64,000 bases of DNA, taken from NCBI GenBank assembly GCA_963804385.1, contig CAWDQD010000009.1, positions 8,890 through 72,889 on the forward strand, written 5' to 3'. The stretch comes from an uncultured Candidatus Micrarchaeota archaeon (GTDB lineage: Archaea; Micrarchaeota; Micrarchaeia; Anstonellales; Bilamarchaeaceae). A program made the position numbers and the translations under genes. Positions 7,500-63,117 of the stretch are shown piece after piece; within the stretch, counting starts at the first letter, position 1; each line of letters opens with the position of its first letter. Under the pieces are notes generated by a model. It worked only from the letters and a program-made list of their open reading frames with translations. It was not told the DNA's origin and made no database searches.

Positions 7500-7540
7500 A
7501 CCCATCATCGTCGAGATGCCGCGGAAATGGATTTTCCCGC

Positions 7541-8659: not shown

Positions 8660-8853
8660 ATTTCCACCATTACTTATCTAATGTTAAATAGTAAATATTA
8701 AATAATCCGGTGTATCCCCGATCCGGCGTCAGAACAGCGGATTTAGGGTGAACTCTTCCAATTTTAAAACCACCTGAACTAATGTAATACGCTAGTCCGA
8801 CTAGCTAGACTCTCTCCCTGCGAGCGCAAGGAGCGAATGACGGAGGCCAAATT

Positions 8854-18196: not shown

Positions 18197-18308
18197 TGAA
18201 ATAAAATGGACTTGGGGGGACTCGCACCCCCGGCCTCTCCGATTCTCTGAACTTTTCGACGGGTTTTTCCCTAAAAAGTTTATGCGAACGGAGCGCTCTG
18301 CTGCTGAG
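18197..18308 (-). tRNA. tRNA-Ala(CGC) with ~39-nt intron at the canonical 37/38 position; non-canonical D- and T-loops
   Basis: Hand-folded from the minus strand. Acceptor GGGCTTG/CAAGTCC with G3:U70 (the Ala identity pair). D-stem GCTC/GAGC. Anticodon stem CTCCG/CGGAG. Loop TT-CGC-A is interrupted by TAAACTTTTTAGGGAAAAACCCGTCGAAAAGTTCAGAGAA. T-stem GGGGG/CCCCC. Discriminator A, then a T-run. The D-loop lacks GG19 and the T-loop reads TGCGAGT instead of TTCRAAT. Confidence 0.55.
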
Positions 18309-18321
18309 CTACAAGCCCGGG

Positions 18322-35533: not shown

Positions 35534-36499
35534 TCATTCCATCTCTATGGTTCCCGGCGGCTTGTTCGTGATGTCGTAGACAACGCGCCCTACCGAGCGG
35601 ATCTCATTCGTGATGCGCGTGGATATCTTCTCGAGCACATCGTGCGGTATCGGTGAGAAATTAGCGGTCATTCCATCGAGCGAGCGCACCGCCCGCACGA
35701 TGACTATGTACTGGTACGCCCTCTCGTCCCCGCGCACGCCGACGGTCTTCGAAGGCAGCAGGGCCGCGAAATACTGCCATGGCCTCTCCATCCTTCCAGC
35801 TGCCACTGCAGCGTCTATCTCATGCTCGGCGATGTCGCAGGCGTCCTGGACTATCTTGACCTTCTCCTCGGTTATCTCGCCCACTATGCGGACCGCCAGA
35901 CCCGGTCCGGGGAACGGCTGCCTCTGGTGGATGGTCTCCGGCAGGCCCAGCTCCTTGCCAACCATCCTGACTTCGTGCTTATAGAGCTCGCGGAGCGGCT
36001 CGCAAAGCTTCATATCCATCTTCTCTGGAAGGCCGCCCACGTTGTGATGGCTCTTTATGGTGTCGCGTCCCAAGCCCCCGCTCTCTATCCAGTCCGGAGC
36101 TATGGTGCCCTGCACGAGGTATTTCGATTTGCTCTTTTTGGCCTCCTCCTCGAATATGCGTATGAACAGCTCGCCGATTATCTTCCTTTTCCTCTCCGGG
36201 TCGCTTACTCCTTCGAGCGCGTCCAGGAATCTCTTTTTGGCTTCCACGACCTTGAGGTCCACTCCGACGCTGTTGGCGGTCTCCACGACCTTCTCGGTCT
36301 CCCCCTTGCGCATCATGCCAGTGTCCACATAGACGGCGTGCAATCGGCCCGGGGCCGCGTGGACGGCCAACGTGGCGGCTACGAACGAATCCACGCCGCC
36401 TGATACGGCGGTGATCGCACGCTCGTCCCCTATCGCGGCCTTTATCTCCTTTACGGATGTCTCGATGAATTTTTTAGGGTTGAAAGGCATATCACGCAC
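35534..36499 (-). CDS. guaA: GMP synthase (glutamine-hydrolysing) subunit B, ATP-pyrophosphatase
   Basis: 321 aa. PP-loop SGGVDSFV, GMP-synthase C-terminal dimerisation region. Archaeal split guaA-B type. Confidence 0.85.
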   Translation of the reverse strand: MRDMPFNPKKFIETSVKEIKAAIGDERAITAVSGGVDSFVAATLAVHAAPGRLHAVYVDTGMMRKGETEKVVETANSVGVDLKVVEAKKRFLDALEGVSDPERKRKIIGELFIRIFEEEAKKSKSKYLVQGTIAPDWIESGGLGRDTIKSHHNVGGLPEKMDMKLCEPLRELYKHEVRMVGKELGLPETIHQRQPFPGPGLAVRIVGEITEEKVKIVQDACDIAEHEIDAAVAAGRMERPWQYFAALLPSKTVGVRGDERAYQYIVIVRAVRSLDGMTANFSPIPHDVLEKISTRITNEIRSVGRVVYDITNKPPGTIEME

Positions 36500-37265
36500 C
36501 TTTTAGGGCATCTGAGATCGTGGTCAACTGCTGGGGCATCCCGAGCATGCTGGCCGCGGCATCGATGAAGAGGAAGATGATAGCCAGCTTGAGCACTGCG
36601 ACCACCAGCGCCATGACGAATCCAGGTATGGGGCCGATGCGATGCGCGATGGAATACGACCTGCCAGCCACCATTATGGATAGATAGATGTTGGCGGCTA
36701 TGAGACAGATCCCGCCCAGCAGCTGGAGGCACGGTATCGGGAAGAAGATATAGAGGCCCGAAACGAACGCCGTGGAAAGTGCCACGACCGATGATAGGTA
36801 GAGCTGCTGCGCGAATGTCGCTTTGCCCCCCATCATGCGCAGGATCCGGAATACGCCGTATTCAAAAGCCAGGGCGAGCAGGACGCTTACCGGCAGGTAG
36901 ACTATGAACGAAAGCAGGACCGGGGCGATGAGGGCAGCCGTCCCGACGGTTGGCTGCGCAGTCCCTATGGCATCCTGGATGGCCTGCGATTCCGCGTTCG
37001 CCATATACGCTGAGCCGACGATGGCCACCACGGAAGTGAGGAATGTTATCAGGCCTCCGAGGAGGAAGACCTCTACCGCCAGGCGCTTATCTGCATCCGG
37101 TATGGCATTCTCCAGCACGCTGTCTATGTCGTGATAGTTGAAGAGCCGCTTCGCGCTATCCCAGGGCTTCATCATCCTCCTGAACGTCGCGATCAGGCCC
37201 AGTATGGCACCTCTGACCCGCTCCCGGAAACTGGGCTTGGCATCTGATTTCTTGCTGGGCATCAC
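36492..37265 (-). CDS. Yip1-like multi-TM membrane protein
   Basis: 257 aa, five predicted TM helices. The topology pattern resembles the Yip1 domain. Low-specificity call. Confidence 0.45.
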   Translation of the reverse strand: MMPSKKSDAKPSFRERVRGAILGLIATFRRMMKPWDSAKRLFNYHDIDSVLENAIPDADKRLAVEVFLLGGLITFLTSVVAIVGSAYMANAESQAIQDAIGTAQPTVGTAALIAPVLLSFIVYLPVSVLLALAFEYGVFRILRMMGGKATFAQQLYLSSVVALSTAFVSGLYIFFPIPCLQLLGGICLIAANIYLSIMVAGRSYSIAHRIGPIPGFVMALVVAVLKLAIIFLFIDAAASMLGMPQQLTTISDALKGA

Positions 37266-44645: not shown

Positions 44646-44765
44646 TGCAGGGGACAGGATTCGAACCTGTGAAGGCACTAAGCCAAAAGATTTCCCAGAC
44701 CGCGATCGGTTAGGGAACGTCGGGCTCTTAAGTCTCTCGCGTTTGACCAACTTCGCTACCCCTGC
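44646..44765 (-). tRNA. tRNA-Leu(UAA) with ~35-nt intron adjacent to anticodon loop and long variable arm
   Basis: Hand-folded. Acceptor GCAGGGG/CCCCTGC, discriminator A. D-loop AAGTTGGTCAAA. Anticodon stem AGAGA/TCTTT with loop CT-TAA-G|intron|A. Variable arm T-GGC-TTAGT-GCC-TTC. T-arm ACAGG-TTCGAAT-CCTGT. A 3' T-run follows. Confidence 0.75.
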
Positions 44766-48995: not shown

Positions 48996-49457
48996 ATGCA
49001 GGATTTGAGCAGATTCAGCTTCGGCGCGACCTCTGCGATTACCGGAAGCCTGGCCCTAATGATCGGGTTGGACCAGCTCGCGGTCTCCAAACTGGGGATA
49101 ATAGGCGCGCTGCTGGTCCTCGCGATCTCCGATAATATCGCGGACTCGCTGGGGATGCACATCTACGCGGAATCGAAATCGAAGGACCATACGCATGTCA
49201 ATACGCTGACGAATTATCTGACCCGTCTGGTCGTAGCGCTCATCCTGGTGGTTTTTGTGGTCGTATTGCCATTGACCTATGCGATCGCCGCATCGTTAGT
49301 GTTCAGCCTGATGGTGATCGGGGTGCTGAGCTATCTCATCGCGAAATCCCATGGCATGAACCCGAGCCGTGTCGTGGCCGAGCATCTGATCGTGTTGATA
49401 CTGGTAGTTTTCGCGAGCCAGGTCATAGGCTCATCGATCAGAGCGTTGTTCGCTTGA
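48996..49457 (+). CDS. VIT/DUF125-like membrane protein
   Basis: 153 aa. FGATSAITGSLALMIGL...ISDNIADSLGMHIYAESKS parallels the VIT-family N-terminal block of the gene at 18401. The remainder is TM helices. Confidence 0.45.
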   Translation: MQDLSRFSFGATSAITGSLALMIGLDQLAVSKLGIIGALLVLAISDNIADSLGMHIYAESKSKDHTHVNTLTNYLTRLVVALILVVFVVVLPLTYAIAASLVFSLMVIGVLSYLIAKSHGMNPSRVVAEHLIVLILVVFASQVIGSSIRALFA

Positions 49458-51824: not shown

Positions 51825-51937
51825 CTTTCCTGCATAACAGCATACTATCCAATTCAGTTCCATTGAGGTGGCGGTCAAGGATTGATTTTTATATGATGCG
51901 TTACATGTCTATACCAATTCGACCAGAGGGATAGCAA

Positions 51938-52753
51938 ATGGCTGTGATTTCCGGATCAAAGATGTACATATATGCTGCTATAGGGGTTGGGCTCCTTGGT
52001 GCCCTGTTCTCTCTAGTGGGCGGTGGCGGACCGCTTTCGATAATTGGAGGCCTTCTATGCCTTATCGGATCGGCATTGGGGGTCATGTTCTGGAAATTCG
52101 GATATATTTTCGTCCCTCTCATCACGCAGAGGACTAACATAATCATGATGAGCGACCTCGGTTATGAGGTCCCCCCGGCCCAAGACGTCATAATCAAGAG
52201 CGTCAACGGCGTTTTCTATGCTTCGGCGTTCCTCGGTCTTAGCATATTCGAGTCGGCGACGGAGAAAAGCAGCGAGGAGACGATCGCATACAGCCAGTTC
52301 TTCGAGAGGGCGATATCGAACATCAAATACGTCACCAAGATAGCATACATGCTCTATGTCGAGGATGTGGGCGAGAAGAGGAAGGTCATAGAGACCCGAA
52401 GAGCGGAATCCCAGCTGCGATTGGCCCGCGAACGCGACAAGCCACAGCCTGACGTGCTCAGGATAGACAAATACGAGCGCGAGGTCGCCATATGGGACAA
52501 CCAGCTCCAGCGCCTGATCAAGGGCGTGAAGCCCATGGGCATAATAGCATACGCCCAGACTTGCGCAGTCGGCCTCAGCAAGGATGCTGCGGTCGCATTG
52601 GCTAGGACCCAGGCGAACGAGCTCAAGACCGTGCTGGCCAACGCGCTCAACGTCGAAGTCGTGACGCTCACAGGAGACGAGATGCTCAAATGCTTCGAAT
52701 GGGAGAGATTCTACCCAGTGACGGCGCAGGAGCTTGAAGAGAGCGTGGTTTAA
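51938..52753 (+). CDS. Membrane protein, 2 N-terminal TM helices plus cytoplasmic coiled-coil domain (first gene of HerA/VirB4-like ATPase operon)
   Basis: 271 aa. TM1 IYAAIGVGLLGALFSLVGG, TM2 IIGGLLCLIGSALGVMFW. The downstream gene starts 3 nt after its stop. Confidence 0.5.
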   Translation: MAVISGSKMYIYAAIGVGLLGALFSLVGGGGPLSIIGGLLCLIGSALGVMFWKFGYIFVPLITQRTNIIMMSDLGYEVPPAQDVIIKSVNGVFYASAFLGLSIFESATEKSSEETIAYSQFFERAISNIKYVTKIAYMLYVEDVGEKRKVIETRRAESQLRLARERDKPQPDVLRIDKYEREVAIWDNQLQRLIKGVKPMGIIAYAQTCAVGLSKDAAVALARTQANELKTVLANALNVEVVTLTGDEMLKCFEWERFYPVTAQELEESVV

Positions 52754-52755
52754 AG

Positions 52756-54339
52756 ATGGCAATCGGCGGAAGGCTCAAGCTAGTCAAGCTCTCCAACAGC
52801 GCTATTTCCAGGCGCAACCCGCTCGTGCGGCCCCCGGAGCCACCCATGGAGGTGCTCTTCGGGGATCCCACCAACTCGATTTACATCGGCAGGACGAAGG
52901 TCTTCAACGTCCCGTTCTACTGGACGTACGAGAATGTCGCGAACCCGCACATCGCCGTGGTCGGGATCTCAGGTTCAGGTAAATCATATTTCATCAAGAC
53001 CTTCCTCCTACGTTCAGCTTTCGTATGGAACAGCAACGCGCTCATAATAGACTGGGCCGGGGAGTACAAGGACTGGGTCAAGCAGACGAACGGCAAGGTC
53101 ATCTCCCTAGGAAAGGGGTCGTACCTCAATCTGCTCGATCTAGGCGGCATGAAGCCGTACGACCGCATCAAGCAGATCATCCGGACGCTCGAGCTGCTAA
53201 CAGACATATCGCAATACCCGGAGCAGAGGCGGCTCACCGAGCAGGCCATCGAAAAGGTCTACATGGAAGGAAAGTTCAAGATGGACGCTTACGAGCAGAA
53301 AGACGAGCTCGGAAAGCCTCTCGCCGCACCGACGCTCAAAGACGTCGTCCGGGTGCTGACCGAGACCGCGCAGGTCGGCTCGTACGAGTTCCCGGCAGAG
53401 CTCGAGAACGCCATCTACCGGCTCAAGCAGTTCACCAAGCCCGGCGAGGATTTCTTCGCCCAGCAGAGCACTGTCCGACTGGACGAGATCATAAGCTCGG
53501 GGCTCGTGGATCTCGACCTCTCGGGGCTTCCTGACGAGACGGCGCGTGCCCTGGCAGCGCTTACGCTCCTCCAATTCATCAAGGAGAAGATGCGCCTCGA
53601 AGGGTGGTCCAATGTCAAGGGTCTCCGGCTGCTCATAGTCCTGGATGAGGCCTGGAAGATAGGCAAGGAGGACAACTCCGACGCGGTCATGATCGTCCGT
53701 GAAGGCCGTAAATACAACTTCGGCATGATAATCGCGTCCCAGAACCCCACGGACATAAGCGAAGCCATATTCAGCAACGTGGGCACGACATTCATACTCA
53801 AGGTGAAATTCGAGAAATTCCTGGATTACCTGCAGGGTTCCCTGAATTTCTCCAATTATATGCGTGATGAGATCAGCCGCCTGGGTGTAGGCCAGTGCGC
53901 GGTCAACATGTCGCTCACACTTCCGATCCCCTACCCATCCACATTCCTTGTGGATAGGATCGAAGGCGAGGAGCCTAGCAAGGAGTACTTCCTGGATCTC
54001 ACCGGGGTGCTCACAGACAAACAGAGGAGGGATGTGTCCGTGTCAAGAAGCGTCTCGTTCCTGAAGGAGGATTTCAGGAGGAAGCTGAGGCAATTCGGCC
54101 TCTTGGATGATAAGATAGAGGAGCTCACGAAGCTTTTCGAGAAAGGCAACCGCCGCATGGATGTCGTTTCGTTCGTCATACTGCTCGAGCGCGACGGTAT
54201 CGCGAGGCGCAACATCAGCGATTTCCTGAAGGATGCCGGTCTGGATGACATAACGATAATCAACATCTTCGGCAAGGTAGACCTCAAGAAGAGCGGCGGG
54301 GTAGGCCGTGAGATAAGCCAGGTAGTGCTAGAGGAGTGA
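52756..54339 (+). CDS. HerA/VirB4-like (DUF87, FtsK-HerA superfamily) P-loop ATPase
   Basis: 527 aa. Walker A HIAVVGISGSGKSYF. Walker B LLIVLDEAWKIG. EGRKYNFGMIIASQNPTDI, the arginine-finger/sensor block typical of HerA/VirB4/TraC-type ATPases. Confidence 0.7.
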   Translation: MAIGGRLKLVKLSNSAISRRNPLVRPPEPPMEVLFGDPTNSIYIGRTKVFNVPFYWTYENVANPHIAVVGISGSGKSYFIKTFLLRSAFVWNSNALIIDWAGEYKDWVKQTNGKVISLGKGSYLNLLDLGGMKPYDRIKQIIRTLELLTDISQYPEQRRLTEQAIEKVYMEGKFKMDAYEQKDELGKPLAAPTLKDVVRVLTETAQVGSYEFPAELENAIYRLKQFTKPGEDFFAQQSTVRLDEIISSGLVDLDLSGLPDETARALAALTLLQFIKEKMRLEGWSNVKGLRLLIVLDEAWKIGKEDNSDAVMIVREGRKYNFGMIIASQNPTDISEAIFSNVGTTFILKVKFEKFLDYLQGSLNFSNYMRDEISRLGVGQCAVNMSLTLPIPYPSTFLVDRIEGEEPSKEYFLDLTGVLTDKQRRDVSVSRSVSFLKEDFRRKLRQFGLLDDKIEELTKLFEKGNRRMDVVSFVILLERDGIARRNISDFLKDAGLDDITIINIFGKVDLKKSGGVGREISQVVLEE

Positions 54340-54346
54340 ATTTGAT

Positions 54347-54847
54347 ATGAAAATCTGCATCTCATGCCAGAAGGATGTCGAAGGCAAGAAGGCATACCCG
54401 GTCAAATGGGACCGGTTCCTCAACCTCATCCTTGTGATCAAGAAGAAGCTCCATGTGGCTCAGATGAACGAGCTATACGTCTGCGAAGATTGCCTCCAGA
54501 AGCACCAGGAGCGCAGGAGCGCCTTCGAGCGGAGCATGATGCTCGCAGGGGTGCTGGCAGGCATAATCATCCTCCTCATCCTATCCACATTCATCCTGGG
54601 CGGGAAATTCGATGCATTCGCCTTCTTCGCAGGAATACTCCTGGCGCTGGTGATGCTCCTGTTCCCACTTTTCAGGTATGCACCCGCGGTAGAGGGCATG
54701 CAGGTGAAACCCTTCGGCAAGCAGTTCTCCATCCCTTTCATATCGAAACCGGTCAAGGCCGAACCCGTTCCCAATCCAGAGCCGGTTAAAGCGCCCGCCA
54801 AAAAAGCATACAAACCAAAGCAGAAAAAGAAGAAAGAGGTGCTCTGA
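54347..54847 (+). CDS. Zinc-ribbon-containing 2-TM membrane protein
   Basis: 166 aa. CISC...CEDC ribbon. Two TM helices (LAGVLAGIIILLILSTFILGG, FFAGILLALVMLLFPLF). Lys/Pro-rich tail. Confidence 0.5.
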   Translation: MKICISCQKDVEGKKAYPVKWDRFLNLILVIKKKLHVAQMNELYVCEDCLQKHQERRSAFERSMMLAGVLAGIIILLILSTFILGGKFDAFAFFAGILLALVMLLFPLFRYAPAVEGMQVKPFGKQFSIPFISKPVKAEPVPNPEPVKAPAKKAYKPKQKKKKEVL

Positions 54848-55635
54848 TGCCGCTTCCGATACCCCAGAAAACAGATCAGAAACCCGGAATGCAGAAACCA
54901 GCAGCGGGGGCCAAGGAGGAGAGCCACCCGCCCCAGGTCGATGGGTTCAAGCTCAAGGGCAAGCTCGAGAAGGGCAAGCTCAAGGACCTGACGAATGTCC
55001 TGCGCTCGATATCGTTCCTCGAGATAGCTTCGGAGAAGGATGCGCTCAATGTCATATACGTAGAGAGCCGGGACATAAACAAGAACCCCTACCTATTCTC
55101 CATCATCAAGATACGCGAGGAAGAAATCGAGGTGCTCTACACAATCCCGCCAGAGATCGGTCCCAAGAAGCGCCGCGTCGATGTCGTCAGATACCTGCTC
55201 AACATACTCTCGCTCATGGAATCGTATTATAGCGTGGATAACAAGACACTCTACCAGCTCGTCGAGGACGCCATAAAGGAGCTCGCAGGCTCCGTTACGA
55301 TGGATTACACAAAGCTCTATACGGCATACGATTCGATGAAGAAAGAGGTGGCGGATTACACGAAGAAGATAGATCGGCTCACCGAGCAGAGCCAGGCGCT
55401 CACATCCCAGAATTACGAGCTAAAAACGCAGAACGATGAGATCCGCCTCCGCCTGAAGCAGCTCGAAGGGATGTCGGACGATTCGCTCAAAACGAAGCTC
55501 CAGGAATGGATATCTGAGCACAACGGCTCGATAAGCATCCCGGATTTCTCCAAGAACTATAAGGTGGCGGACGGGCGTGTTGAGGATATGCTCAACAAAC
55601 TCGTCAGCGAAGGATACATAGAAGTAATACAATAG
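54847..55635 (+). CDS. Coiled-coil protein with C-terminal winged-helix-like segment
   Basis: 262 aa. The start overlaps the upstream stop (TGATG). Heptad-rich segment KKIDRLTEQSQALTSQNYELKTQNDEIRLRLKQLEG. The C-terminus ...VADGRVEDMLNKLVSEGYIEVIQ is wH-like. Confidence 0.5.
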   Translation: MPLPIPQKTDQKPGMQKPAAGAKEESHPPQVDGFKLKGKLEKGKLKDLTNVLRSISFLEIASEKDALNVIYVESRDINKNPYLFSIIKIREEEIEVLYTIPPEIGPKKRRVDVVRYLLNILSLMESYYSVDNKTLYQLVEDAIKELAGSVTMDYTKLYTAYDSMKKEVADYTKKIDRLTEQSQALTSQNYELKTQNDEIRLRLKQLEGMSDDSLKTKLQEWISEHNGSISIPDFSKNYKVADGRVEDMLNKLVSEGYIEVIQ

Positions 55636-55648
55636 GTACAGGATCTTT

Positions 55649-58207
55649 ATGCCTGATCTGGCGAGCACGAAAATCAAGAGAAAAATATACCGCTTTGAAA
55701 TTAAGCGGCGCTACACGTACGAAGGCCACTATCGCATCAAGGAGCGGCCTCCTATTGAGCGCATAAAGGATGCCCTCCGCAGCTTCACGGCTCCCAAGAA
55801 AGAAGAGAAGCGAGCGGTCGTCGCATCAGCTCCGCCTCCAGGCGGATTCAATTTCCTGGTCATGGGTGCGGCGATAGCGGTCGCCCTCATAATATTGCTG
55901 CTTGCAGGGCTATATCTCGCTGTCCAGGCGGTCCCGAGCGCCGGCGCTTTCCAGCCGGAGATAGACCGGGGTGTCATCAACGCGACCGTAGACCACGGTG
56001 AGATCCTGACGTTGGGGGATCGCATTACCCCGTCGCATGTGGCCTCGGTGTTCGTCAATTATGATACCGCGAATCTACAGAACCTCACGGTGCAGTTGAC
56101 CGCCTACGATCAACGCATCCCATCCGAGGTCTTCGTGCTCGTCTCGGATCGCTCCGAAGAGACCAAATCTTATCCCGATTTCGTGCGGATCCTGAGGTCT
56201 GACCTCGCGACGCGCCAGATACTCCTGAACGAGATCACGATACAGCAGCTTGCGACCCTTCCGGAAGGCGCCATGGTGATTGTCCCGTCGGGGGTGGTGC
56301 CTGAAGGGCTCTTAGGCGTCGACAGCCCCGTCACGATGGACAGCCTGGCAAGCAAAGGCGTCATCGTCATCTATATCGGCCAGCCTTTCACATACATGCT
56401 CAATGGCAGCCTTTCGGTACTGACGCCCCAAGACACACTCAACTCATTACCCGTTTCATTCGATGAGAGCGCAGATATCAGTTCGACCCCGGATTTCCAT
56501 CTAAAGCAGCCGCTTTACCGTGTATCCGCACTTGGCGGATGGACCGCCAACATGATCTATGGCTCCGTCAGCGTGCTGGAAAAAGGCGACGGAGCATTCA
56601 TATTCGTGCCGCAGACGTTGGATTCAGGATGGGATAACGCGACGGTGGCCGCAGACGATATCGCGACGATGGTGTTCGACACCCCGTGGATAACGCCCGA
56701 TGGCGACCCCAGCAGCTATGTGTTCACGAACCAGACGCAATATTCAGGCAGTCGTTACTTCTTCACCAACACGTTCACTCCTGCGAACGCTACGATCAAA
56801 GTGGAATTCATAGGATATCCGCTGGTTTCCAGCAATCCTGTCCGCGAGACGGTCCTGCTCAGGGCGGAATCGATGACAAGCAACGCCCTGGTGGTGGAGC
56901 AGAGCGGGCAGGTGATACCATATAACGTCACCGGGCAGCCGACCAGGATGAACGCGCGCCTGCGCGAACCAATCGCTGCGCAACCCGACATGTTCCTGAA
57001 CATATTCGATGTCAATGGCACCGAAGCGGAAAGCGTCCCAGAGGGTAACATCAATGTCCAATCCGATGAATCTTTCGATCCGCATATAGACGTCGATCGC
57101 GGCGAGTACATAGTCCGTCTCATGGACGATTCAGGCAAGGTGTACGCCCAGACCTACATGGATGTCGTTTCACCCGATATCCAATACGCCGGAGAGGATC
57201 AGCAAAAACAGTCCCTCTATAATTTCAACATCGAGCTGGCTGGCCAGCCATACACCCTCAGTGACCTGTCGGTGTCCGTAGATGAGGGCCAGTACGGCAC
57301 CTTCAAGTTCAATAATGTCAACAGCATCCAGGTGGATGTCACGAACACCGGCGGCCAGTCGCTTCCGTACGGGAACCACAGCTTCAGTTTCACGGCCGGA
57401 GATTACAAGACCGTCATCTACGTCCCCCATACCAGAGCCCAGACGCTCTTCGACAACCCCCTGTTCTGGCTGGTCGGCATCTTCACTGTCGGTATAGTAG
57501 GCATCGGCGTCTTCTTCGCCAGGCAGGAGGACGTGTTCTTCTCGATAGACATACCGGACTTCCCGCCCGTGGCTCGGACCCGGATACCATTATCGCCCGA
57601 CGTCGTCATCAGCATCTTCACTAAGATTAACGACACCTACAGATGGCAGAACACCCCCCTCACAGCCAACGAGGTCAAGAACGGTTTCAAGGACATATTC
57701 TTCCAGGGCAAGCCCATCATAATCACGGATTACAACGTCGAATACCTCCTTGATGACCTGGAGAAGAAAGGCCGGGTGAAGGAAGCGCTCGGCTACTACG
57801 GGCTCAGCGAATGGGCCGATAAGACGAAACGAAGCATGGATTATATGGCTCTGATGAGGCGCTTGAGGGACATCTGCGTCAACAACGCCATCCCCTTCAC
57901 CGGCCTTGGTGAGTCCGAGGAGGCCGATAGCGTGATAACCGTGGTCGGCCAGCAGATGTTCGTGCACTTCTTCGATAAGAGCTCGGACGTTTCCCAGATA
58001 ATCGGGAGTTCGCTATCCACGATAAGCAAGGGCATAACGATAATCCTATTCAAGAACAACAGCGAGAAGGAGGCGTTCCAGAATATGCTGGTCTCCTCGC
58101 CTTCGGCCGCGCCTATGATAACCAAGATGGAAGCGGAAGGCGGATCGTTGCAGTTCCTGACGGCCGAAGAATTCGAGAAGATGCTCATGGAATTCAAATC
58201 GATGTGA
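55649..58207 (+). CDS. Large (852 aa) bitopic membrane protein: basic cytoplasmic N-tail, TM, ~500-aa extracytoplasmic sequon-rich domain, second TM, ~230-aa cytoplasmic C-domain
   Basis: TM1 FNFLVMGAAIAVALIILLLAGLYLAV, TM2 LFWLVGIFTVGIVGIGVFFA. At least eight N-x-S/T sequons lie between them (NATV, NLTV, NGSL, NQTQ, NATI, NVTG, NGTE, NHSF). Confidence 0.55.
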   Translation: MPDLASTKIKRKIYRFEIKRRYTYEGHYRIKERPPIERIKDALRSFTAPKKEEKRAVVASAPPPGGFNFLVMGAAIAVALIILLLAGLYLAVQAVPSAGAFQPEIDRGVINATVDHGEILTLGDRITPSHVASVFVNYDTANLQNLTVQLTAYDQRIPSEVFVLVSDRSEETKSYPDFVRILRSDLATRQILLNEITIQQLATLPEGAMVIVPSGVVPEGLLGVDSPVTMDSLASKGVIVIYIGQPFTYMLNGSLSVLTPQDTLNSLPVSFDESADISSTPDFHLKQPLYRVSALGGWTANMIYGSVSVLEKGDGAFIFVPQTLDSGWDNATVAADDIATMVFDTPWITPDGDPSSYVFTNQTQYSGSRYFFTNTFTPANATIKVEFIGYPLVSSNPVRETVLLRAESMTSNALVVEQSGQVIPYNVTGQPTRMNARLREPIAAQPDMFLNIFDVNGTEAESVPEGNINVQSDESFDPHIDVDRGEYIVRLMDDSGKVYAQTYMDVVSPDIQYAGEDQQKQSLYNFNIELAGQPYTLSDLSVSVDEGQYGTFKFNNVNSIQVDVTNTGGQSLPYGNHSFSFTAGDYKTVIYVPHTRAQTLFDNPLFWLVGIFTVGIVGIGVFFARQEDVFFSIDIPDFPPVARTRIPLSPDVVISIFTKINDTYRWQNTPLTANEVKNGFKDIFFQGKPIIITDYNVEYLLDDLEKKGRVKEALGYYGLSEWADKTKRSMDYMALMRRLRDICVNNAIPFTGLGESEEADSVITVVGQQMFVHFFDKSSDVSQIIGSSLSTISKGITIILFKNNSEKEAFQNMLVSSPSAAPMITKMEAEGGSLQFLTAEEFEKMLMEFKSM

Positions 58208-58285: not shown

Positions 58286-59485
58286 ATGCAAGCGTTAGCG
58301 GATAGGATTCCTACAAGGCCCAGCATTTACGGAAAACCACCCCAACCGCTGATAGATCGCTATCCGAAAGCGTACAAGATTCGAGCGCCTTACAATTTTA
58401 AGATGTACAGCGCCCAAACCACGGAATTCGCCGAATTTTTCAGGGAACTGGTGAAAGACGCGAAGCAGCCATTGGATCCTGCAGAGCTTCGCAGGCTCAT
58501 GGCAATAGGCCTTATCAGCAAACCTCCGAACGACATCGCCATAGAAGCTGCAGGCAGGGAAATCGTGATACGCGGGCTCCACAAGTATCTGGCTGGCTGC
58601 ATATTTCTCCGAAGCGTATATCTCCACTATAATGGTGATTCGGAAAAAGCGAACGACTTCAGTTTGAATGCGATAGGGAATATCGAAAAGTGGAAATATT
58701 GGCCATTCGAATTAGACCTCACCAACATGGAACGTTCGATATCCGCTTTTCATGCTTTGGCACATTTCATACCCGGGTCCAATCCAAGAGAAATCGGGGG
58801 GATGCTTGCTGCTTTTTATGCTGTGGAAGGGCAGCAGACCGAAATTCAAAGCGACGTGAATATCAATCCGGCCGTTTTAGACGCATTGGCAATATATATA
58901 CGTCAAAGAAAGAAGGACGACCTTCTCTGGTCTATATTTCCCTATGCTTTTGACAACAGTTATGCCGTATTAGGGAATACGCTTTCAGATAGCCACATCG
59001 GAACTTGCGATATAGAGACAAAATTCACAAGCGATCATATTGCAGTATTGCTCCAGCATCCCTGCGAAGCGGACCATCTGGAGAAGGCCAAATTGATGCT
59101 GGACCGAGGCGTGCGGGTCGAACGGCCTTTGGGGCGATTGCTCATAGACGAAATGCAATTCTCTTTGTTCCAATGGGTTCCTGGCCAGAAGTTGGATCAT
59201 ATGTACGGCGCGGCAGATGTCTGGGAAGCGTACGGGAGATTCGTAAGATCGTGCCACAATAATGGTATCGCTCTCGATGACGCTGCAGGGAGGAACGCCA
59301 TCTGGAATGGAAGAGAAATAACCGGAATCGATTTCGAGCACACCTGGTTTTCAGAAGAGGCAAAGCCTCTGGAATGGGCCGACCGCAGGAAAGGGATAGA
59401 GCGGATCAGAACGGAGCTTGGTTACGATTTTAAACCGGTATATGCGGCATTCAGAAAGGGATATGACGCTTCAGAGCATCTCTAA
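58286..59485 (+). CDS. Hypothetical protein (399 aa), possible atypical kinase-like fold at C-terminus
   Basis: Clean ORF with an upstream TATA (AAGGTTTATAAGTAG). The C-terminal block GIALDDAAGRNAIWNG...ITGIDFEHTWF loosely resembles a protein-kinase-like catalytic loop plus a DFG-like segment. Weak. Confidence 0.4.
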   Translation: MQALADRIPTRPSIYGKPPQPLIDRYPKAYKIRAPYNFKMYSAQTTEFAEFFRELVKDAKQPLDPAELRRLMAIGLISKPPNDIAIEAAGREIVIRGLHKYLAGCIFLRSVYLHYNGDSEKANDFSLNAIGNIEKWKYWPFELDLTNMERSISAFHALAHFIPGSNPREIGGMLAAFYAVEGQQTEIQSDVNINPAVLDALAIYIRQRKKDDLLWSIFPYAFDNSYAVLGNTLSDSHIGTCDIETKFTSDHIAVLLQHPCEADHLEKAKLMLDRGVRVERPLGRLLIDEMQFSLFQWVPGQKLDHMYGAADVWEAYGRFVRSCHNNGIALDDAAGRNAIWNGREITGIDFEHTWFSEEAKPLEWADRRKGIERIRTELGYDFKPVYAAFRKGYDASEHL

Positions 59486-59855: not shown

Positions 59856-60542
59856 TCACTTCTTCTTCTCGAACAGTTCCGCGATGCCTTTCTCGTCTAT
59901 GAATTCCATCATCTTGTTGCAGCGCTCGCAGCGGAATTCGCACCCTGCGGCCGATTCGAAATTGGTGATGCTCTCGGTGCCGCATGAGGGGCAGAAATAG
60001 AACTCCGAGCCTGCATCTGCTCCTAGGTGGCTCATCTTCGAATTATGGCTGGTCACCCACCTTTCCATCCTCTCGTGGTTGAGAGACCAGCTATACGAAT
60101 ACCATCCGGTTTCGCTATCCTTTTCACGGATGTAGTTCACAAGCCCTTCATTATGGAGCTTATTGAGGGTGGCGCGAACATCGCTTATCTTGATTTTGAG
60201 CCTTTTCGCCAGATCCTCGTCGCTCAGGTTGCCTGAGAAATTGCGTACGATGGCGAGCGCGTTCTCGCCGCCAATCCCTATGAGATCCTGCCTGATCCTG
60301 CAGTCGCTGAGTATCGTGATGACCCTCCTCATGAGGGCCTGCTCCTCTACTCCGCTCATGCGCACCGGTTTTGGCGCTTCCGGAGGGGAAATCGCCTTCT
60401 TGGCGATTTTCAGCTTCTTCGTCGGAGCCTTCTTAGGCGTCGCCTTAGCCTTCTTAGGCATTGCCTTCTTTAGTGCCGCCGTTTTCTTCGGAATAGGAGT
60501 TTTCTTAGATTTCTTGACTACCAAAGTATCACCAGTACACAC
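59856..60542 (-). CDS. tfe: Transcription factor E alpha (TFE) with Lys-rich N-terminal extension
   Basis: 228 aa. Winged helix (LSDEDLAKRLKIKISDVRATLNKLHNEGLV) plus C-terminal Zn ribbon CPSCG...CERC. The N-terminal ~60 aa is KKSKKTPIPKKTAALKKAMPKKAKATPKKAPTKKLKIAKK. Confidence 0.7.
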   Translation of the reverse strand: MCTGDTLVVKKSKKTPIPKKTAALKKAMPKKAKATPKKAPTKKLKIAKKAISPPEAPKPVRMSGVEEQALMRRVITILSDCRIRQDLIGIGGENALAIVRNFSGNLSDEDLAKRLKIKISDVRATLNKLHNEGLVNYIREKDSETGWYSYSWSLNHERMERWVTSHNSKMSHLGADAGSEFYFCPSCGTESITNFESAAGCEFRCERCNKMMEFIDEKGIAELFEKKK

Positions 60543-60621
60543 CGTGCAACATATATTTACGCATTTTTCATATATAAAGCTATTGTTTTACGCTTTCTGG
60601 TGTGTTGTGGGCCCTTATTGT

Positions 60622-61797
60622 CTATCCGGGCACCTTCCTCCCCAAGATGCGGTTGTACGTCTTAATCATCATGTCTACACTGGCTTGTATGGTGTATTTC
60701 TTGGAGGTCCTGCAGCCCGCATCGCCCATCCGTTCCCGAAGCTTCTTATCAGAGAGGAGCTTGTCGATTGCCCCTGCCAACTCGCCGGGGTTGCTCGGTT
60801 CAACCAAAAACCCCGTCTTTCCGTCCTGGATGACCTCTTTCGGGCCCAGCTTCCGCACTCCGACAACCGGGCAGCCCATGTGCATGGCCTCCACGAATGT
60901 CATGCCGAACGTCTCCGTGTCTGAAGCGGATGCGAAGACATCGGCGCATGCGTACGCCGCCCCCAGTTGCTTATCAGCCACGAATCCCGTGAAGATGACA
61001 TTCTCGAGCCCCATTGTGGCCGCAAGGCTCTTGAAATTCCGGATATACGGCCCGCCACCGGCAATCACCAGGATCGTATCATTCCGTTCCATCATTCCGA
61101 ATGCTTCCAGGAGGACATCGAGCCGCTTCTCGAAGCTTATCCGTCCTAGATAAAGGACGATTTTCTTGCCTTTGGGGATGTTGTGGGCTTTTTTGAAAGC
61201 CGAGACGTCTTTCGGAGAGCATGCGAGCTTCCGCATATCTATCCCGTTGGGAACGTATTCGACATTGCGCAGGCCATATGACCGCAGCTCTTCCACCAAC
61301 TCCATCGTGGGTGCGGTCACGGCATCAGCGTTCCGGAACATGTACTTCACGAACTTCTTGGCCGTGTATTCGCTCAACCTCCTCAGGGGCTTGGGGAGTT
61401 TCCCATTCAGTAAGTGGGGGACATAATCCGGGAAATGCGTATGGTAGGTGATGATAGTGGGTATATGCTTGCGTCCCGCAGAGATCACTCCCTGGAGCCC
61501 GAGGTTTATAGGTGCGTGTGCATGTACGATGTCCGGTTTTTCCTCTCTAAGGATGGCGCTGACGCGGCCATAATCCATGGATGCTATGCGATAGCCTTCG
61601 TAGAACGGGAATGGTACGGATGGCATCCAATGTATCTTGAAGTTGCCATTCACCTGTTCCGTCCGCATCGGTCCCTGCCCTGGGGCGAATAGCACGATCT
61701 CATGGTTTTCGGACAGGACGCCTATCGCATCATGGATGTAGGCGACCACGCCGTTGGTCTGCGGCAGGTAGGTATCCGTGAATATCGCTATCTTCAT
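60622..61797 (-). CDS. Family-4 (GT-B) glycosyltransferase
   Basis: 391 aa. MKIAIFTDTYLPQTNGV, EAxxxGxPVV and the E-x7-E region are typical of group-1 glycosyltransferases. Confidence 0.85.
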   Translation of the reverse strand: MKIAIFTDTYLPQTNGVVAYIHDAIGVLSENHEIVLFAPGQGPMRTEQVNGNFKIHWMPSVPFPFYEGYRIASMDYGRVSAILREEKPDIVHAHAPINLGLQGVISAGRKHIPTIITYHTHFPDYVPHLLNGKLPKPLRRLSEYTAKKFVKYMFRNADAVTAPTMELVEELRSYGLRNVEYVPNGIDMRKLACSPKDVSAFKKAHNIPKGKKIVLYLGRISFEKRLDVLLEAFGMMERNDTILVIAGGGPYIRNFKSLAATMGLENVIFTGFVADKQLGAAYACADVFASASDTETFGMTFVEAMHMGCPVVGVRKLGPKEVIQDGKTGFLVEPSNPGELAGAIDKLLSDKKLRERMGDAGCRTSKKYTIQASVDMMIKTYNRILGRKVPG

Positions 61798-61833: not shown

Positions 61834-63117
61834 TTATCCCGTGCCGTTGCTGGGTGCAGTGCTGGTGGTCGTGTTGTCGATGTAGTTCATGAACGCGTTG
61901 GCCTGTGCTTCTGTCGCGTTGTCTACGTGCGTCGAATTGCCCGTCTGATTCTGAGGCATCGATGGCAGCGTAGTTGTCACATTGGTTTGTGTCTGATTGA
62001 TCTGCGGTATCGGCATGGCAGCCTGTTCGCAGAGCTGGACTTTGCTGGAGTTCATAATCTCGGAGCAGTACGTATCGTTCTTATTCGCTCCCGCGAGTTC
62101 TATGAAGCAATCGTCCTTGTACGAAGCATCAGTCACATCATCGCATATGGAGCTGTTTTTCAGCAAAGGCACCAGTGACACCAAGCATTGGTCCTTTCTT
62201 GCCCCGGCTATCATGCAGATGTCCGAGCGTTCCTGCTCCATCGCCTCGGTGGCGATGCATTTGTCCCGTTCATCACCGGTTTTTTCCGTGACGCATGATA
62301 CGAGGTATGACTGCTCATTCCTTTCATTCATCAGGACTGCCACTGCATCGCCGCTCATGTTCTGCGGAGGGGTTATCGTGACCTGTGCATTCGGGATCAG
62401 AGAGATGAGTTGGAACTCCGAGGTATAATTGATTCCATTGTAAGTGTAGTTGAATGACCTGTCATAGAGGTAGCCCGTCTGATTGTCTACGCACATGCTC
62501 CAGTAGAATATCTTCGGGGTCGTGGCTCCGACTCCGAATCTGGCCGCATCATCTAGGCTCATATTGGTCATGTTCAGGACGTACCGTATGGCGTCGCAAC
62601 CATGGCCGTTGATGCTCTCTTTGGTGACGGTCGGATCGAGCATTATGTATCCCCTATCCAGCAAGTATGTCGTATCAACATCGTTGGCATCTATGATTGT
62701 GTCATTGAAATAGTTGATGCTTATCGAATCGAGATAATTCTCCACGTCCGCATTCCCAGAGATATAAGAGCACCCCTGCTCATCGCCGTATGTGATGCAC
62801 AGTATCGTGCCGTTCTCCAAATAGTATATCTCCTTCGTGGATATGGGGTTCTGCACGATGGCTTCCCTTTCGGCGCCTTGATCCAAGAGCGTATAAGTGG
62901 TGTTATACCCGTTTGATATATCGCTGAACGAGTAGGAATACGTTTTCTGGCCTTTTCCGAAAAGCACCGCTTTATGGAGTATCGATTCGGCCGCGGTCAT
63001 ATTCGGAGGCTTTGCAGGGGCTGTCGGGGCCGCCGGCATCGTGGTGAACACGATATATAACGCGAAAACCACAAGCACTACTATAACTGCCAGGAGTATC
63101 TTCTGCTGGTATTCCAT
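61834..63117 (-). CDS. Membrane-anchored, heavily sequon-decorated surface protein
   Basis: 427 aa. N-terminal signal anchor ILLAVIVVLVVFALYIVF. At least eighteen N-x-S/T sequons. Lies next to the GT4 gene. Confidence 0.5.
   Translation of the reverse strand: MEYQQKILLAVIVVLVVFALYIVFTTMPAAPTAPAKPPNMTAAESILHKAVLFGKGQKTYSYSFSDISNGYNTTYTLLDQGAEREAIVQNPISTKEIYYLENGTILCITYGDEQGCSYISGNADVENYLDSISINYFNDTIIDANDVDTTYLLDRGYIMLDPTVTKESINGHGCDAIRYVLNMTNMSLDDAARFGVGATTPKIFYWSMCVDNQTGYLYDRSFNYTYNGINYTSEFQLISLIPNAQVTITPPQNMSGDAVAVLMNERNEQSYLVSCVTEKTGDERDKCIATEAMEQERSDICMIAGARKDQCLVSLVPLLKNSSICDDVTDASYKDDCFIELAGANKNDTYCSEIMNSSKVQLCEQAAMPIPQINQTQTNVTTTLPSMPQNQTGNSTHVDNATEAQANAFMNYIDNTTTSTAPSNGTG

Follow-up and report, generated by a model that had tools for sequence, protein, structure and literature searches.

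The stretch of DNA analyzed here (the window, 64,000 nucleotides) belongs to a Micrarchaeota (Bilamarchaeaceae-like) chromosome and contains, between positions 51938 and 58207, five plus-strand open reading frames (ORFs), g1 to g5, whose coordinates were confirmed exactly. The gaps between them are 2, 7, -1, and 13 nt, in agreement with the tight, co-directional packing described in the initial annotation, and the five genes form one operon, which is both genuine and conserved. Inspection of the sequence ahead of g1 located a TATA-box-like element, TTTTTATAT (51886..51894, plus strand), some 45 nt before the start of g1, as a putative promoter of the operon. A Shine-Dalgarno-like GAGGG stretch lies downstream of this element and ahead of g1.

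The Motor ATPase

The second gene, g2 (52756..54339, plus strand), encodes a soluble 527-amino-acid P-loop ATPase of the HerA clade (CedB/CedD/VirB4-like), as judged by matches to Pfam, NCBIfam, and PDB. All three motifs previously quoted for this protein were found: the Walker A motif GISGSGKS (aa 70-77; 52963..52986), the Walker B motif LIVLDEAW (aa 293-300; 53632..53655), and EGRKYNFGMIIASQNP (aa 316-331; 53701..53748), which aligns with HerA-type chains in the conserved sensor/arginine-finger region of the HerA/VirB4 clade, all on the plus strand. A helical domain of approximately 100-120 aa follows at the C-terminus (nt 53983-54336, plus strand), and g2 has no N-terminal domain of its own. 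The Pfam gathering cut-offs are exceeded for DUF87 (59.6 bits against 23.2; E 6e-16), AAA_10 (54 bits against 27.5; E 2e-14), and P-loop_TraG (38.6 bits against 25.8; E 7e-10), which bears out the earlier assignment to DUF87, and g2 is a member of the HerA/VirB4 clade of the FtsK-HerA superfamily. Matches to TrwB/TraG fall below the cut-offs and cover only the P-loop, as does the match to FtsK_SpoIIIE (20.0 bits against a cut-off of 24; aa 50-86).

Among NCBIfam models, the best for g2 are VirB4_plasma (72.8 bits), CedD (71.6), and CedB (70.7), all over aa 40-380; the PADLOC DndH model scores 71.6 bits, and HerA models cover only part of the protein (aa ~250-390). The equivalog cut-offs of CedD and CedB (600 and 700 bits) are not approached, and g2 is a homolog of these proteins rather than an ortholog. 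Ced-type ATPases nevertheless stand, as had been suggested, as its nearest characterized relatives. The best matches among solved structures are HerA-type ATPases (PDB, E 4e-12), and the PADLOC match is to DndH/DptH-type ATPases (E 6.5e-21). The DEAW variant of Walker B had been taken for a VirB4 flavor; when the Walker-B/sensor segment was compared with solved structures, it fitted HerA-type chains (E 3.5e-8) better than a VirB4 (4ag5, E 0.058), and DEAW is unusable as a VirB4 marker. One ortholog (P0319) carries an intein directly ahead of the Walker B strand.

A Detached Anchor and N-Terminal Domain

The 271-aa product of g1 (51938..52753, plus strand) is predicted to comprise two transmembrane (TM) helices (aa 6-63) and a cytoplasmic alpha/beta domain of about 200 aa that includes a helical hairpin (TM prediction and an AF2 model with a pLDDT of 66.6). 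The two TM helices proposed for it earlier were recovered, and what had been read as a coiled coil is this hairpin inside the alpha/beta domain. The statement that no partner of the ATPase carries a recognizable motif also has to be withdrawn for g1, which is homologous to the N-terminal part of fused ATPases. On the basis of these fused relatives, of profile comparisons, and of a weak top match in Foldseek to TrwK/VirB4, g1 is the TM anchor of the ATPase together with its N-terminal domain, of VirB4/CedB type, detached from the motor.

The fused relatives (P0349 and others; approximately 880 aa and 33% identical to g2) combine two TM helices, the N-terminal domain, and the ATPase in one chain. 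Comparison of the g1 profile with their N-termini by hhalign gave a probability of 97.2% (E 1e-10); the soluble part of g1, with the TM helices removed, still gave 86% (E 5e-6), and a reversed control gave 0.9%. A g1-like intermediate at a further locus (L086) matches both HMMs (6.6e-23 and 1.1e-11); the N-terminal domain of P0371 is matched by the g1 HMM (E 1.9e-4). The fused relatives, in turn, cover nearly the full length of the CedB model (E 7e-42), and their N-termini alone match the N-terminal domains of CedB (E 3e-6) and VirB4 (E 4e-5 to 2e-3); one of them adjoins a protein with a Pfam CedA1 domain. Family-model searches returned no direct match between g1 and CedB, so the link between the two is transitive. 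Foldseek, run with the g1 model, placed TrwK/VirB4 chains in five of its eight top positions (best E 0.013, probability 0.91). The architecture of a Ced-type ATPase (TM anchor, VirB4-type N-terminal domain, and motor) is present here, divided between g1 and g2. The UniRef name of one g1 ortholog (P0199) is SPFH/Band 7, and no Band_7/SPFH domain supports that name for g1.

The Partner Proteins

The 166-aa product of g3 (54347..54847, plus strand) is predicted to have a cytoplasmic Zn-ribbon-like head (CxxC...CxxC) and a membrane hairpin of two helices (aa ~62-115), the second followed by YxPAxE. Its tail is rich in lysine, and the protein carries a conserved RRKxFE motif. Of its earlier description as a Zn-ribbon protein with two TM helices, the hairpin is upheld; in the Zn ribbon, the second Cys pair is not conserved in all orthologs. 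No family in Pfam or NCBIfam matches g3. A pilin of the VirB2/CedA1/TedC kind was considered and rejected, as its two helices come after a cytoplasmic Zn-ribbon head of 60 aa and are followed by a basic tail; Pfam CedA1 gives no match, and any relationship to pilins would be very remote.

Alignment of orthologs divides the soluble 262-aa product of g4 (54847..55635, plus strand) into three parts: a conserved N-terminal domain (aa ~30-140), which contains the motifs VESRDIxKNPYLFS and YTIPP; a coiled-coil segment (aa ~141-212); and, at the C-terminus, a putative winged helix (aa ~213-262). The coiled coil had been recognized correctly, and the winged helix is supported weakly, by Pfam matches to EAP30 (E 0.005) and HTH_41 (E 0.007) and by its best PDB match, the winged helix of CdvB (2xvc, E 5e-4). 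The coiled coil has weak matches to DivIC/FtsB, ZapB, GpsB, and YabA, and g4 was assigned to no known family.

The largest protein, g5 (852 aa; 55649..58207, plus strand), was not assigned to a known family either. Described earlier as bitopic and sequon-rich, it is sequon-rich, but topology prediction gives two TM helices (aa ~69-93 and ~604-623), with both termini inside. A basic cytoplasmic N-terminus is followed by an outside region of about 510 aa, predicted to contain a beta-sandwich, a class-I-glutamine-amidotransferase/ThuA-like alpha/beta domain, and further beta-sandwiches (that is, Ig/FN3-like and ThuA-like domains), and the cytoplasmic C-terminus (aa ~644-852) is predicted to hold a winged-helix-like domain and a small alpha/beta domain. 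The outside loop carries 9 of the 11 sequons (4.5 expected; p ~0.02), and the same pattern holds in 72 orthologs (1.47 sequons per 100 aa in the loop versus 0.38). It is a two-pass protein and probably a surface glycoprotein.

Conservation across the Micrarchaeota

The locus was compared across 80 Micrarchaeota species genomes, counting it where the contig was long enough. Order and strand of g1-g2-g3-g4-g5 are kept, with g1 present in 77 of the 80 genomes, g3 in 76, g4 in 77, and g5 in 74; the missing partner genes belong to loci at contig ends. Median intergenic gaps over these loci are 0, 4, 4, and 10 nt. The flanking genes vary from genome to genome while the five stay together, an arrangement far beyond chance, and the operon is a core chromosomal feature of the Micrarchaeota, a group of tiny DPANN archaea. 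The literature that was searched yielded no account of this operon.

The motor is strongly conserved (63-98% identity over the 80 species) and better conserved than the adjacent purB in the same genomes (e.g., 68% versus 55% identity in L059). The fastest-evolving member is g5 (26-85% identity). At distant loci the ATPase is accompanied by g1-, g4-, and g5-like genes, with g4 homologs downstream of it at two of them (L081 and L085), and g3 is restricted to the core Micrarchaeota loci.

Genomic Context

The operon is chromosomal and flanked by housekeeping genes; in many species purB or TFE adjoins it. The neighborhood scan covered the flanks from 47.7 to 63.1 kb and ten ORFs between 33.5 and 47.7 kb. 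Neither the operon nor these scanned parts contain a relaxase, a VirD4 coupling protein, an integrase, or any mobile-element context, nor did the scanned parts yield a pilin or prepilin peptidase, as had been noted before. NurA, Mre11, and Rad50 are likewise absent from the scanned flanks and the ten ORFs, in line with the initial annotation. No tRNA, integrase, relaxase, repeat boundary, or division gene adjoins the operon, whose GC content is that of its surroundings. The best plasmid matches reach no more than 24-28% identity, over partial lengths, and phage matches are not meaningful. The view that the genes are chromosomal rather than an integrated plasmid is therefore upheld by the housekeeping flanks, by the lack of mobile-element genes in the scanned parts, and by the lack of a close plasmid or phage relative.

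No protein of the operon has more than two TM helices. Other window ORFs with at least two predicted TM helices encode SecD, SecF, VIT1, a GT2 glycosyltransferase, a DUF2085 protein, a 60-aa protein with a sub-threshold DUF2157 match, and three proteins without a family match; a further multi-TM ORF, minus-overlapping (60163-60924), lay outside the family scan. No VirB6/CedA/TedA-like channel of 5-7 TM helices was found in the operon or among the scanned multi-TM ORFs of the window, and no VirB2/CedA1-like pilin was detected in the operon or among those ORFs.

Comparison with Known Systems

The Ced system imports DNA and is induced by DNA damage. Like the Ced system of the Sulfolobales (CedA, CedA1, CedA2, CedB, CedD, and CedE), the Micrarchaeota operon is chromosomal rather than plasmid-borne, and its HerA-clade/VirB4-like ATPase likewise combines a motor with a VirB4-type N-terminal domain and a TM anchor; no family model fits g2 markedly better than those of CedD and CedB. 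DNA import requires CedB and CedD, whose N-terminal domains correspond to that of VirB4 (PMC11868833, PMC9905601); in Ced, too, the ATPase is spread over more than one polypeptide, with CedB and CedD jointly covering the VirB4 N-terminal domain (PMC11868833). Unlike Ced, the operon separates the anchor and N-terminal domain (g1) from the motor (g2), encodes no homolog of CedA/CedE (VirB6-like, 5-7 TM) or of CedA1/CedA2, and includes three proteins (g3, g4, and g5) unrelated to any Ced component. The scores of g2 lie about ten-fold under the Ced ortholog cut-offs, and the operon belongs to DPANN Micrarchaeota rather than Thermoproteota and is far more conserved. The Ted system of the Thermoproteales (VirB6-like TedA, VirB4-like TedB, and the VirB2-like pilin TedC) is a domesticated chromosomal derivative of a type IV secretion system (T4SS) without a relaxase (PMC9905601). 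The operon likewise is chromosomal, has a VirB4-family motor, and has no relaxase, but it includes no pilin, no channel homolog, and no linked ParA/VirC1, HerA, or Rad50 genes.

Similarity to bacterial VirB4/TrwK/TraC lies in the P-loop of g2, which matches VirB4 models, and in the model of g1, which best fits TrwK/VirB4 chains; here a separate membrane-anchored protein carries the N-terminal domain, the sequence of g2 is nearer the HerA/Ced branch, and VirB3, VirB6, VirB8, VirD4, VirB11, and relaxase are missing from the operon. In the ultra-small-celled Patescibacteria, a relaxase-less chromosomal VirB4 system is kept group-wide and is essential for epibiosis (PMC12102498), and the Micrarchaeota operon resembles it as a relaxase-less VirB4-family system kept chromosomally across the group. 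The resemblance to Ced, Ted, and conjugative modules proposed earlier therefore holds through the motor only, since a VirB6/CedA-like channel and a VirB2/CedA1-like pilin were not detected in the operon or among the scanned multi-TM ORFs of the window. HerA-NurA and HerA-based defense ATPases belong to the same clade as g2 and provide its top matches among solved structures, but the Walker A motif of g2 (aa 70-77) lies too near the N-terminus for a HAS-barrel domain ahead of it, and the partners are membrane-bound instead of a nuclease or effector. With FtsK/SpoIIIE and EssC/EccC, the operon shares the superfamily, a presumed membrane-tethered hexameric pump, and small membrane partners with extracellular domains; it differs in its N-terminal domain, and the similarity is at P-loop level only, below family cut-offs.

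Proposed Function

We propose, with a probability of roughly 0.75, that the operon encodes an envelope machine powered by a split CedB/VirB4-type motor. The g1 protein would supply the N-terminal domain of VirB4/CedB type along with two TM helices, and g2 the P-loop motor and C-terminal helical domain; the g2 hexamer would thus be tethered to the membrane by g1, with g3, g4, and g5 assembled around the motor. The outside region of g5 could reach the S-layer, and its cytoplasmic tail would contribute a winged-helix-like domain. Since the operon encodes no VirB6/CedA-like channel, the conduit would have to come from multiple copies of g1, g3, and g5, with their 2+2+2 TM helices. ATP hydrolysis would drive a polymer through the membrane, with DNA the foremost candidate; DNA as cargo is a tentative assignment, short of even odds, made by analogy with CedB/CedD-dependent import and VirB4. 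Taken as a whole, the account of a membrane-embedded translocation machine with a split motor, its partners, and a polymer that is most likely DNA has, in our judgment, about an even chance of being correct. The best reading of the operon is a translocation machine derived from Ced/T4SS, in a chromosomal variant found throughout the lineage, and what is new is the recognition of g1 as the detached anchor and N-terminal domain of the motor rather than an unrelated partner.

It is unlikely, but deserving of consideration, that the apparatus serves host contact or protein export, assembling a surface structure or moving proteins or host-derived material instead of DNA, in parallel with the part that VirB4 plays in pilus biogenesis and in the secretion of effectors, with the FtsK-like EssC of type VII secretion, and with the chromosomal T4SS of Patescibacteria. 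The large, surface-exposed, predicted glycosylated g5, with its Ig/FN3-like and ThuA-like domains and the rapid evolution expected of a contact surface, is consistent with such a role, as is an operon free of relaxase, nuclease, and recombination genes. Micrarchaeota belong to the DPANN archaea, a group that includes several known episymbionts; the Patescibacteria system is needed for epibiosis (PMC12102498), and in Nanohaloarchaeota, VirB4/TraG-like ATPases are linked to giant surface proteins (PMC10266531). Yet the closest characterized relatives, CedB and CedD, serve DNA import, and no gene for a secreted substrate or pilin is apparent. Micrarchaeota of the Anstonellales/Bilamarchaeaceae type, reportedly with fairly complete biosynthesis, may need hosts less (PMC8561730) and still keep the operon. 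Somewhat less probable is a DNA translocase anchored in the membrane like FtsK, which would clear or segregate chromosomes at division, with g4 as a link to the division machinery. The occurrence of one conserved locus in each of the genomes examined, its housekeeping synteny, the very slow evolution of g2, and the intein in P0319 would suit this role. Inteins favor essential, conserved proteins. The CdvB (ESCRT-III) match of the g4 winged helix and the division-protein matches of its coiled coil point the same way, and a chromosome-handling role in archaea was proposed for the FtsK-HerA superfamily by Iyer et al. (2004), as cited in PMC4158269. The coiled-coil matches are generic, however, the N-terminal domain is of VirB4/CedB rather than FtsK type, the FtsK_SpoIIIE match is sub-cut-off and confined to the P-loop, no division gene adjoins the operon, and the large extracellular g5 has no obvious part in segregation.

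The HerA-type and DndH/DptH-type matches of g2 might suggest a repair helicase (HerA-NurA-Mre11-Rad50) or a HerA-based anti-phage module, which we consider very improbable: beyond the missing HAS-barrel and the partial alignment of the HerA models, SIR2, DUF4297, and other effectors are, like NurA, Mre11, and Rad50, absent from the operon and the scanned neighborhood, each of the four partners is a membrane or adaptor protein for which PADLOC gave no match (g2 alone was matched), and defense systems are patchy and fast-evolving, whereas g1-g5 are conserved lineage-wide. VirB4-like ATPases are typical of conjugative elements, and one remoter short-ATPase relative (L084) has a tRNA and an integrase 5.5 kb away; but a remnant of a conjugative plasmid or other mobile element is hardly credible for an operon with the unremarkable borders and GC content described above, only remote plasmid matches, and a place beside purB or TFE in many species.

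The proposed translocation machine may also be considered in relation to the Micrarchaeon ARM-1, in the envelope of which cryo-tomography revealed a barrel-like docking platform of ~21 nm that is the entry point of host nanotubes and to which no gene has been assigned (PMC11329633). The lineage-wide conservation of the operon, its envelope-spanning architecture, and the unassigned ARM-1 structure lead us to raise, as a speculation rated below both host contact or export and chromosome handling, that the operon encodes the Micrarchaeota side of an envelope complex for macromolecule exchange between episymbionts and hosts. In a docking platform such as the ARM-1 barrel, g5 oligomers would form the outside barrel, and the split motor of g1 and g2, with g3 and g4, the base in the membrane and cytoplasm. 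Such a complex, if real, would be the archaeal counterpart of the T4SS that Patescibacteria require for epibiotic growth.

Operon Structure and Conservation

The five co-directional genes at 51938-58207, here called g1 to g5, were recovered as plus-strand open reading frames (ORFs) at exactly the positions reported in the initial annotation. They are g1 (51938-52753, 271 aa), encoding a protein with two transmembrane (TM) helices; g2 (52756-54339, 527 aa), encoding the ATPase, in which all of the ATPase motifs quoted earlier were found; g3 (54347-54847, 166 aa); g4 (54847-55635, 262 aa); and g5 (55649-58207, 852 aa). The intergenic gaps, in order, are 2, 7, -1, and 13 nt. Reading the sequence, we noted a TATA-like element (TTTTTATAT) approximately 45 nt upstream of g1 and another directly upstream of the following gene (58286-59485), which suggests that g1 to g5 form a single transcription unit. 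This following gene, also on the plus strand, encodes a 399-aa protein with weak similarity to Bud32-like kinases (E = 1.5e-4); it has no counterpart in any of 80 related loci and is outside the conserved module.

A scan in which each species was represented by a single genome detected relatives of g2 in 158 genomes, of which the best 80 were retained and inspected. All 80 belong to the Micrarchaeota, including Anstonellales, Bilamarchaeaceae, and Micrarchaeales, and their ATPases are 63-98% identical to g2; proteins that are identical or nearly so stem from metagenome-assembled Micrarchaeota genomes carrying the label Candidatus Bilamarchaeum or Bilamarchaeaceae. When all window proteins were searched against these loci by tblastn, the order and strand of g1-g2-g3-g4-g5 were found to be kept at every locus with sufficient contig (g1 accompanies g2 in 77 of 80 loci, g3 in 76/80, g4 in 77/80, and g5 in 74/80), with median gaps of 0, 4, 4, and 10 nt. 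The flanks differ among the same loci: purB lies upstream in 43 and TFE downstream in 32, and the two immediate neighbors of the operon in the window are hardly ever retained. The conservation of neighborhood that had been proposed as a check is observed in the form of a constant five-gene order within changing surroundings. At the most divergent end of the set, identity is 63% for g2, about 46-50% for g1, and about 26-35% for g3, g4, and g5, and g2 is better conserved than purB from the same genomes (68% versus 55% in L059; 77% versus 71% in L030). One ortholog of g2, P0319 (1026 aa, 61% identical), carries a LAGLIDADG-endonuclease intein directly before the Walker B strand, with junctions GIKLF/CLDGEEK...SSN/CVVDEAWK, at a point equivalent to window position ~53632. 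Taken together, gene order, flank variation, gap lengths, relative rates, the comparison with purB, and the intein indicate a strongly constrained core gene set rather than a fast-evolving accessory island. A further ortholog, P0320 (1196 aa), probably also bears an intein, to judge by how long it is and by its match in two stretches.

The ATPase and Its Detached N-Terminal Half

The main new result is that g1 is the N-terminal half of the ATPase. When 1.84 billion representative proteins were searched exhaustively, a graded series of relatives emerged. Some of these, ~880 aa long and sharing about 33% identity with g2, are single chains with two TM helices and a domain of ~200 aa ahead of the ATPase. 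A profile of 74 g1 orthologs aligned with the N-termini of these fused relatives over 244 columns (hhalign 97.2%, E = 1e-10), and did so after removal of its TM helices (86%, E = 5e-6; column-reversed control, 0.9%). There was also a direct match (E = 1.9e-4) between the g1 hidden Markov model (HMM) and the N-terminal domain of one fused protein, and a g1-like protein from the distant locus L086 matched both the g1 HMM (6.6e-23) and an HMM of the fused N-termini (1.1e-11). Detection of distant g1 homologs required a broader HMM built from the loci; a narrow one, whose input sequences were 66-94% identical, gave no match to any ATPase representative.

The fused relatives in turn match described motors. 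Residues 102-641 of the fused protein P0349 correspond to positions 75-587 of the 590-position CedB model (E = 7e-42), a near full-length alignment, and the fused N-termini alone match the N-terminal region of CedB (E = 3e-6) and the N-terminal domain of a VirB4 model (E = 4e-5, 1e-3, and 2e-3), with model coordinates in agreement. Neither g1 alone nor an artificial concatenate of g1 and g2 gave a direct NCBIfam match to the CedB or VirB4 N-terminal domain. When a moderate-confidence structural model of g1 (pLDDT 66.6) was compared with 350,542 PDB chains using Foldseek, the top match was TrwK/VirB4 of plasmid R388 and VirB4 chains made up five of the eight best matches, at a best E value of just 0.013 and with low TM-scores. 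The link from g1 to the CedB/VirB4 N-terminal domain is thus transitive, passing through the fused relatives, and is supported from three independent directions. We conclude that g1 and g2 together amount to one protein of the CedB/CedD/VirB4 kind, comprising TM helices, N-terminal domain, and motor; for g1, in which the initial annotation recognized no motif, this is a correction. The label "SPFH/Band 7" attached to a g1 ortholog in UniRef was rejected.

The g2 protein scores above the Pfam cut-offs for DUF87, AAA_10, and P-loop_TraG. Its best NCBIfam matches are to the VirB4 of mycoplasma integrative and conjugative elements, CedD, and CedB (71-73 bits over aa 40-380), all far under the equivalog cut-offs, and the NCBIfam HerA models cover just the C-terminal half of the motor. 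Compared by sequence with solved structures, g2 is closest to HerA-type ATPases (E = 4e-12; VirB4, E = 3e-5), as is its Walker-B/sensor segment taken alone, so the earlier argument that the DEAW Walker B marks a VirB4 flavor fails. These structure matches are consistent with earlier work that assigned CedB and CedD to the HerA clade (PMC11868833). Since Walker A lies at aa 70-77, g2 itself lacks an N-terminal domain, be it a HerA HAS-barrel or one of VirB4 type.

At the other end of the protein, several Micrarchaeota lineages encode, directly 3' of g2, an additional copy of its final ~75-100 aa that shares 47-56% identity with g2 aa ~428-527 (L052, 5898-6197; L057, 8538-8834; L072, 8604-8894; L074, 8735-8953; L076, 5400-5618; L077, 9025-9243; L078, 8602-8898; L080, 2539-2829), so that the C-terminal helical domain behaves as an independent module. 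Overlong ATPase matches at these loci, at first suspected of containing inteins, reflect these downstream copies, and what looked like a g1-g2 fusion in L072 was produced by runs of N.

Partner Proteins and Distant Loci

The g3 protein has a CxxC...CxxC zinc-ribbon-like head, a conserved RRKxFE motif, a two-helix membrane hairpin, and a lysine-rich tail; the second cysteine pair is lost in some orthologs. It matched no family, was found in core Micrarchaeota loci only, and is specific to them. In g4, a conserved N-terminal domain is followed by a coiled coil and by a putative winged helix at the C-terminus (55483-55632, aa ~213-262). Among PDB sequences, this winged helix is matched best by the CdvA-binding winged helix of the ESCRT-III protein CdvB (2xvc, E = 5e-4), with an additional weak Pfam match to EAP30/Vps36, and from these similarities it may hint at a role in protein-protein contacts or a link to division; other g4 matches are to generic coiled coils. 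The N-glycosylation sequons of the window's g5 cluster in the loop that separates its TM helices, a bias also seen across 72 orthologs; this supports a two-TM topology in place of the bitopic arrangement originally proposed. Searching PDB sequences with a g5 profile found nothing.

Archaeal loci with a more distant ATPase (37-46% identical) keep part of this set. A g1 homolog adjoins the ATPase in L081, L083, L084, and L085 and lies nearby in L086; L081 and L085 also have g4 homologs after the ATPase, and in L083 and L086 the ATPase is flanked by g5-like proteins. The part of the operon that is conserved thus reduces to a kernel of g1-g2 accompanied by g4, g5, or both.

Genomic Context

The operon lies among housekeeping genes, encoding adenylosuccinate lyase, TFE, TFB, GMP synthase, a PAC2 proteasome chaperone, an HD hydrolase, an M24 peptidase, glycosyltransferases, and SecD/SecF, and GC content is even throughout the window. 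No integrase, relaxase, pilin, or prepilin peptidase, and no NurA, Mre11, or Rad50, was found in the operon or its flanks (47.7-63.1 kb), nor did any turn up among the ten ORFs examined in the 33.5-47.7 kb interval or the multi-TM ORFs examined in other parts of the window; the earlier statement that relaxase, pilin, and prepilin peptidase are missing nearby holds for these regions. A tblastn search of 72,556 plasmids and 50,697 phage records returned just partial matches to the P-loop region (24-34% identity). A VirB6/CedA-like channel and a VirB2/CedA1-like pilin are absent from the operon, and neither was detected among the multi-TM ORFs of the window.

Proposed Function

The genes g1 to g5 form a conserved operon whose CedB/VirB4-type motor is split and would be anchored in the membrane through g1, and with envelope-spanning partners and cytoplasmic adaptors, in a chromosomal, housekeeping context. 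The complex would translocate a polymer. By analogy with VirB4, with CedB/CedD-dependent DNA import (PMC11868833), and with the Ced/Ted systems (PMC9905601), its most likely cargo is DNA, a reading to which we assign a probability of roughly 0.35-0.4. Unlike Ced/Ted and type IV secretion systems (T4SS), the operon has neither channel nor pilin, and g2 scores against CedB and CedD at the level of a homolog, not an ortholog; both points argue against simple membership in those systems. The initial picture of a trans-envelope translocation system akin to them stands as regards a chromosomal, widely conserved, Ced/T4SS-related machine, with the relationship confined to the motor and translocation itself something we infer.

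Other roles were weighed. One in host contact or protein export, which would parallel the relaxase-less T4SS needed by Patescibacteria for epibiosis (PMC12102498), seems unlikely. An FtsK-like role in the cell cycle, suggested by the extreme degree of conservation and by the resemblance of the g4 winged helix to that of CdvB, we consider rather improbable, and repair, defence, or a mobile element is much less likely than any of these. With respect to host contact, a barrel-like complex of unassigned identity has been seen in the envelope of the Micrarchaeon ARM-1 at the docking site of host nanotubes (PMC11329633); any connection between that complex and the operon is speculation, and the supplement of the cryo-ET paper holds no HerA, DUF87, or VirB4 entry. 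We found no description of the operon in the literature searched, including the Ced/Ted papers, an archaeal dark-matter survey, and the LFLS genome paper, nor is it mentioned in the Mia14 paper or a 2025 Micrarchaeota genome paper.

DPANN archaea make up a large and mostly uncultivated share of archaeal diversity, and we know of no gene-level account of how they exchange material with other cells. The operon is a concrete candidate for such exchange, being conserved at every place that could be examined among the best 80 of 158 species genomes. The CedB/VirB4-type motor family powers DNA import in Sulfolobales and bacterial conjugation; here the motor has been rebuilt, with its N-terminal domain detached and with three partners that match no described family. 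If DNA is moved, Ced-like exchange would reach from hyperthermophilic Thermoproteota to DPANN, and a VirB4-type motor would be able to work without a VirB6-like channel or pilin; a host-contact or cell-division role, if true, would be no less informative. In either case, the g1/g2 split and the natural fused relatives offer a clean system for studying motor-membrane coupling by the VirB4 N-terminal domain.

Other Features of the Window and Related Loci

In the metagenomic locus L087 (168-3890), a 60-aa ORF and a 291-aa protein in which Pfam recognizes a CedA1 domain precede the fused protein P0371, and the locus looks like an uncharacterised Ced-like one. The C-terminal ~190 aa of seven fused CedB-like relatives (P0349, P0357, P0360, P0361, P0371, P0399, and P0404; alignment A5) comprise a winged-helix-like segment and a block with invariant GG..H, E, D, ExET, and K residues; its likeness by eye to a PD-(D/E)xK nuclease was unsupported by Pfam or PDB profile searches. 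L084 encodes a short ATPase relative of 370 aa, accompanied by a g1-like gene of its own (1123-2455), and, 5.5 kb from it, a tRNA gene abutting a phage-type integrase (7256-9113), so that this branch may be carried on an integrated element.

Two further membrane proteins of the window matched no family: a multi-pass protein with six predicted TM helices (36492-37265, minus strand), and one with four (48996-49457, plus strand), located 2.5 kb upstream of the operon and kept in the closest relative, L001, only. A 427-aa ORF (61834-63117, minus strand) with an N-terminal TM or signal-like helix and no Pfam match is likely a surface glycoprotein, as suggested by many N-x-S/T sequons and cysteines seen by eye (uncounted). 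ARAGORN predicted zero tRNAs over the entire window; Rfam identified two tRNA genes on the minus strand (18207-18318, 112 nt; 44646-44765, 120 nt), both presumably intron-containing.
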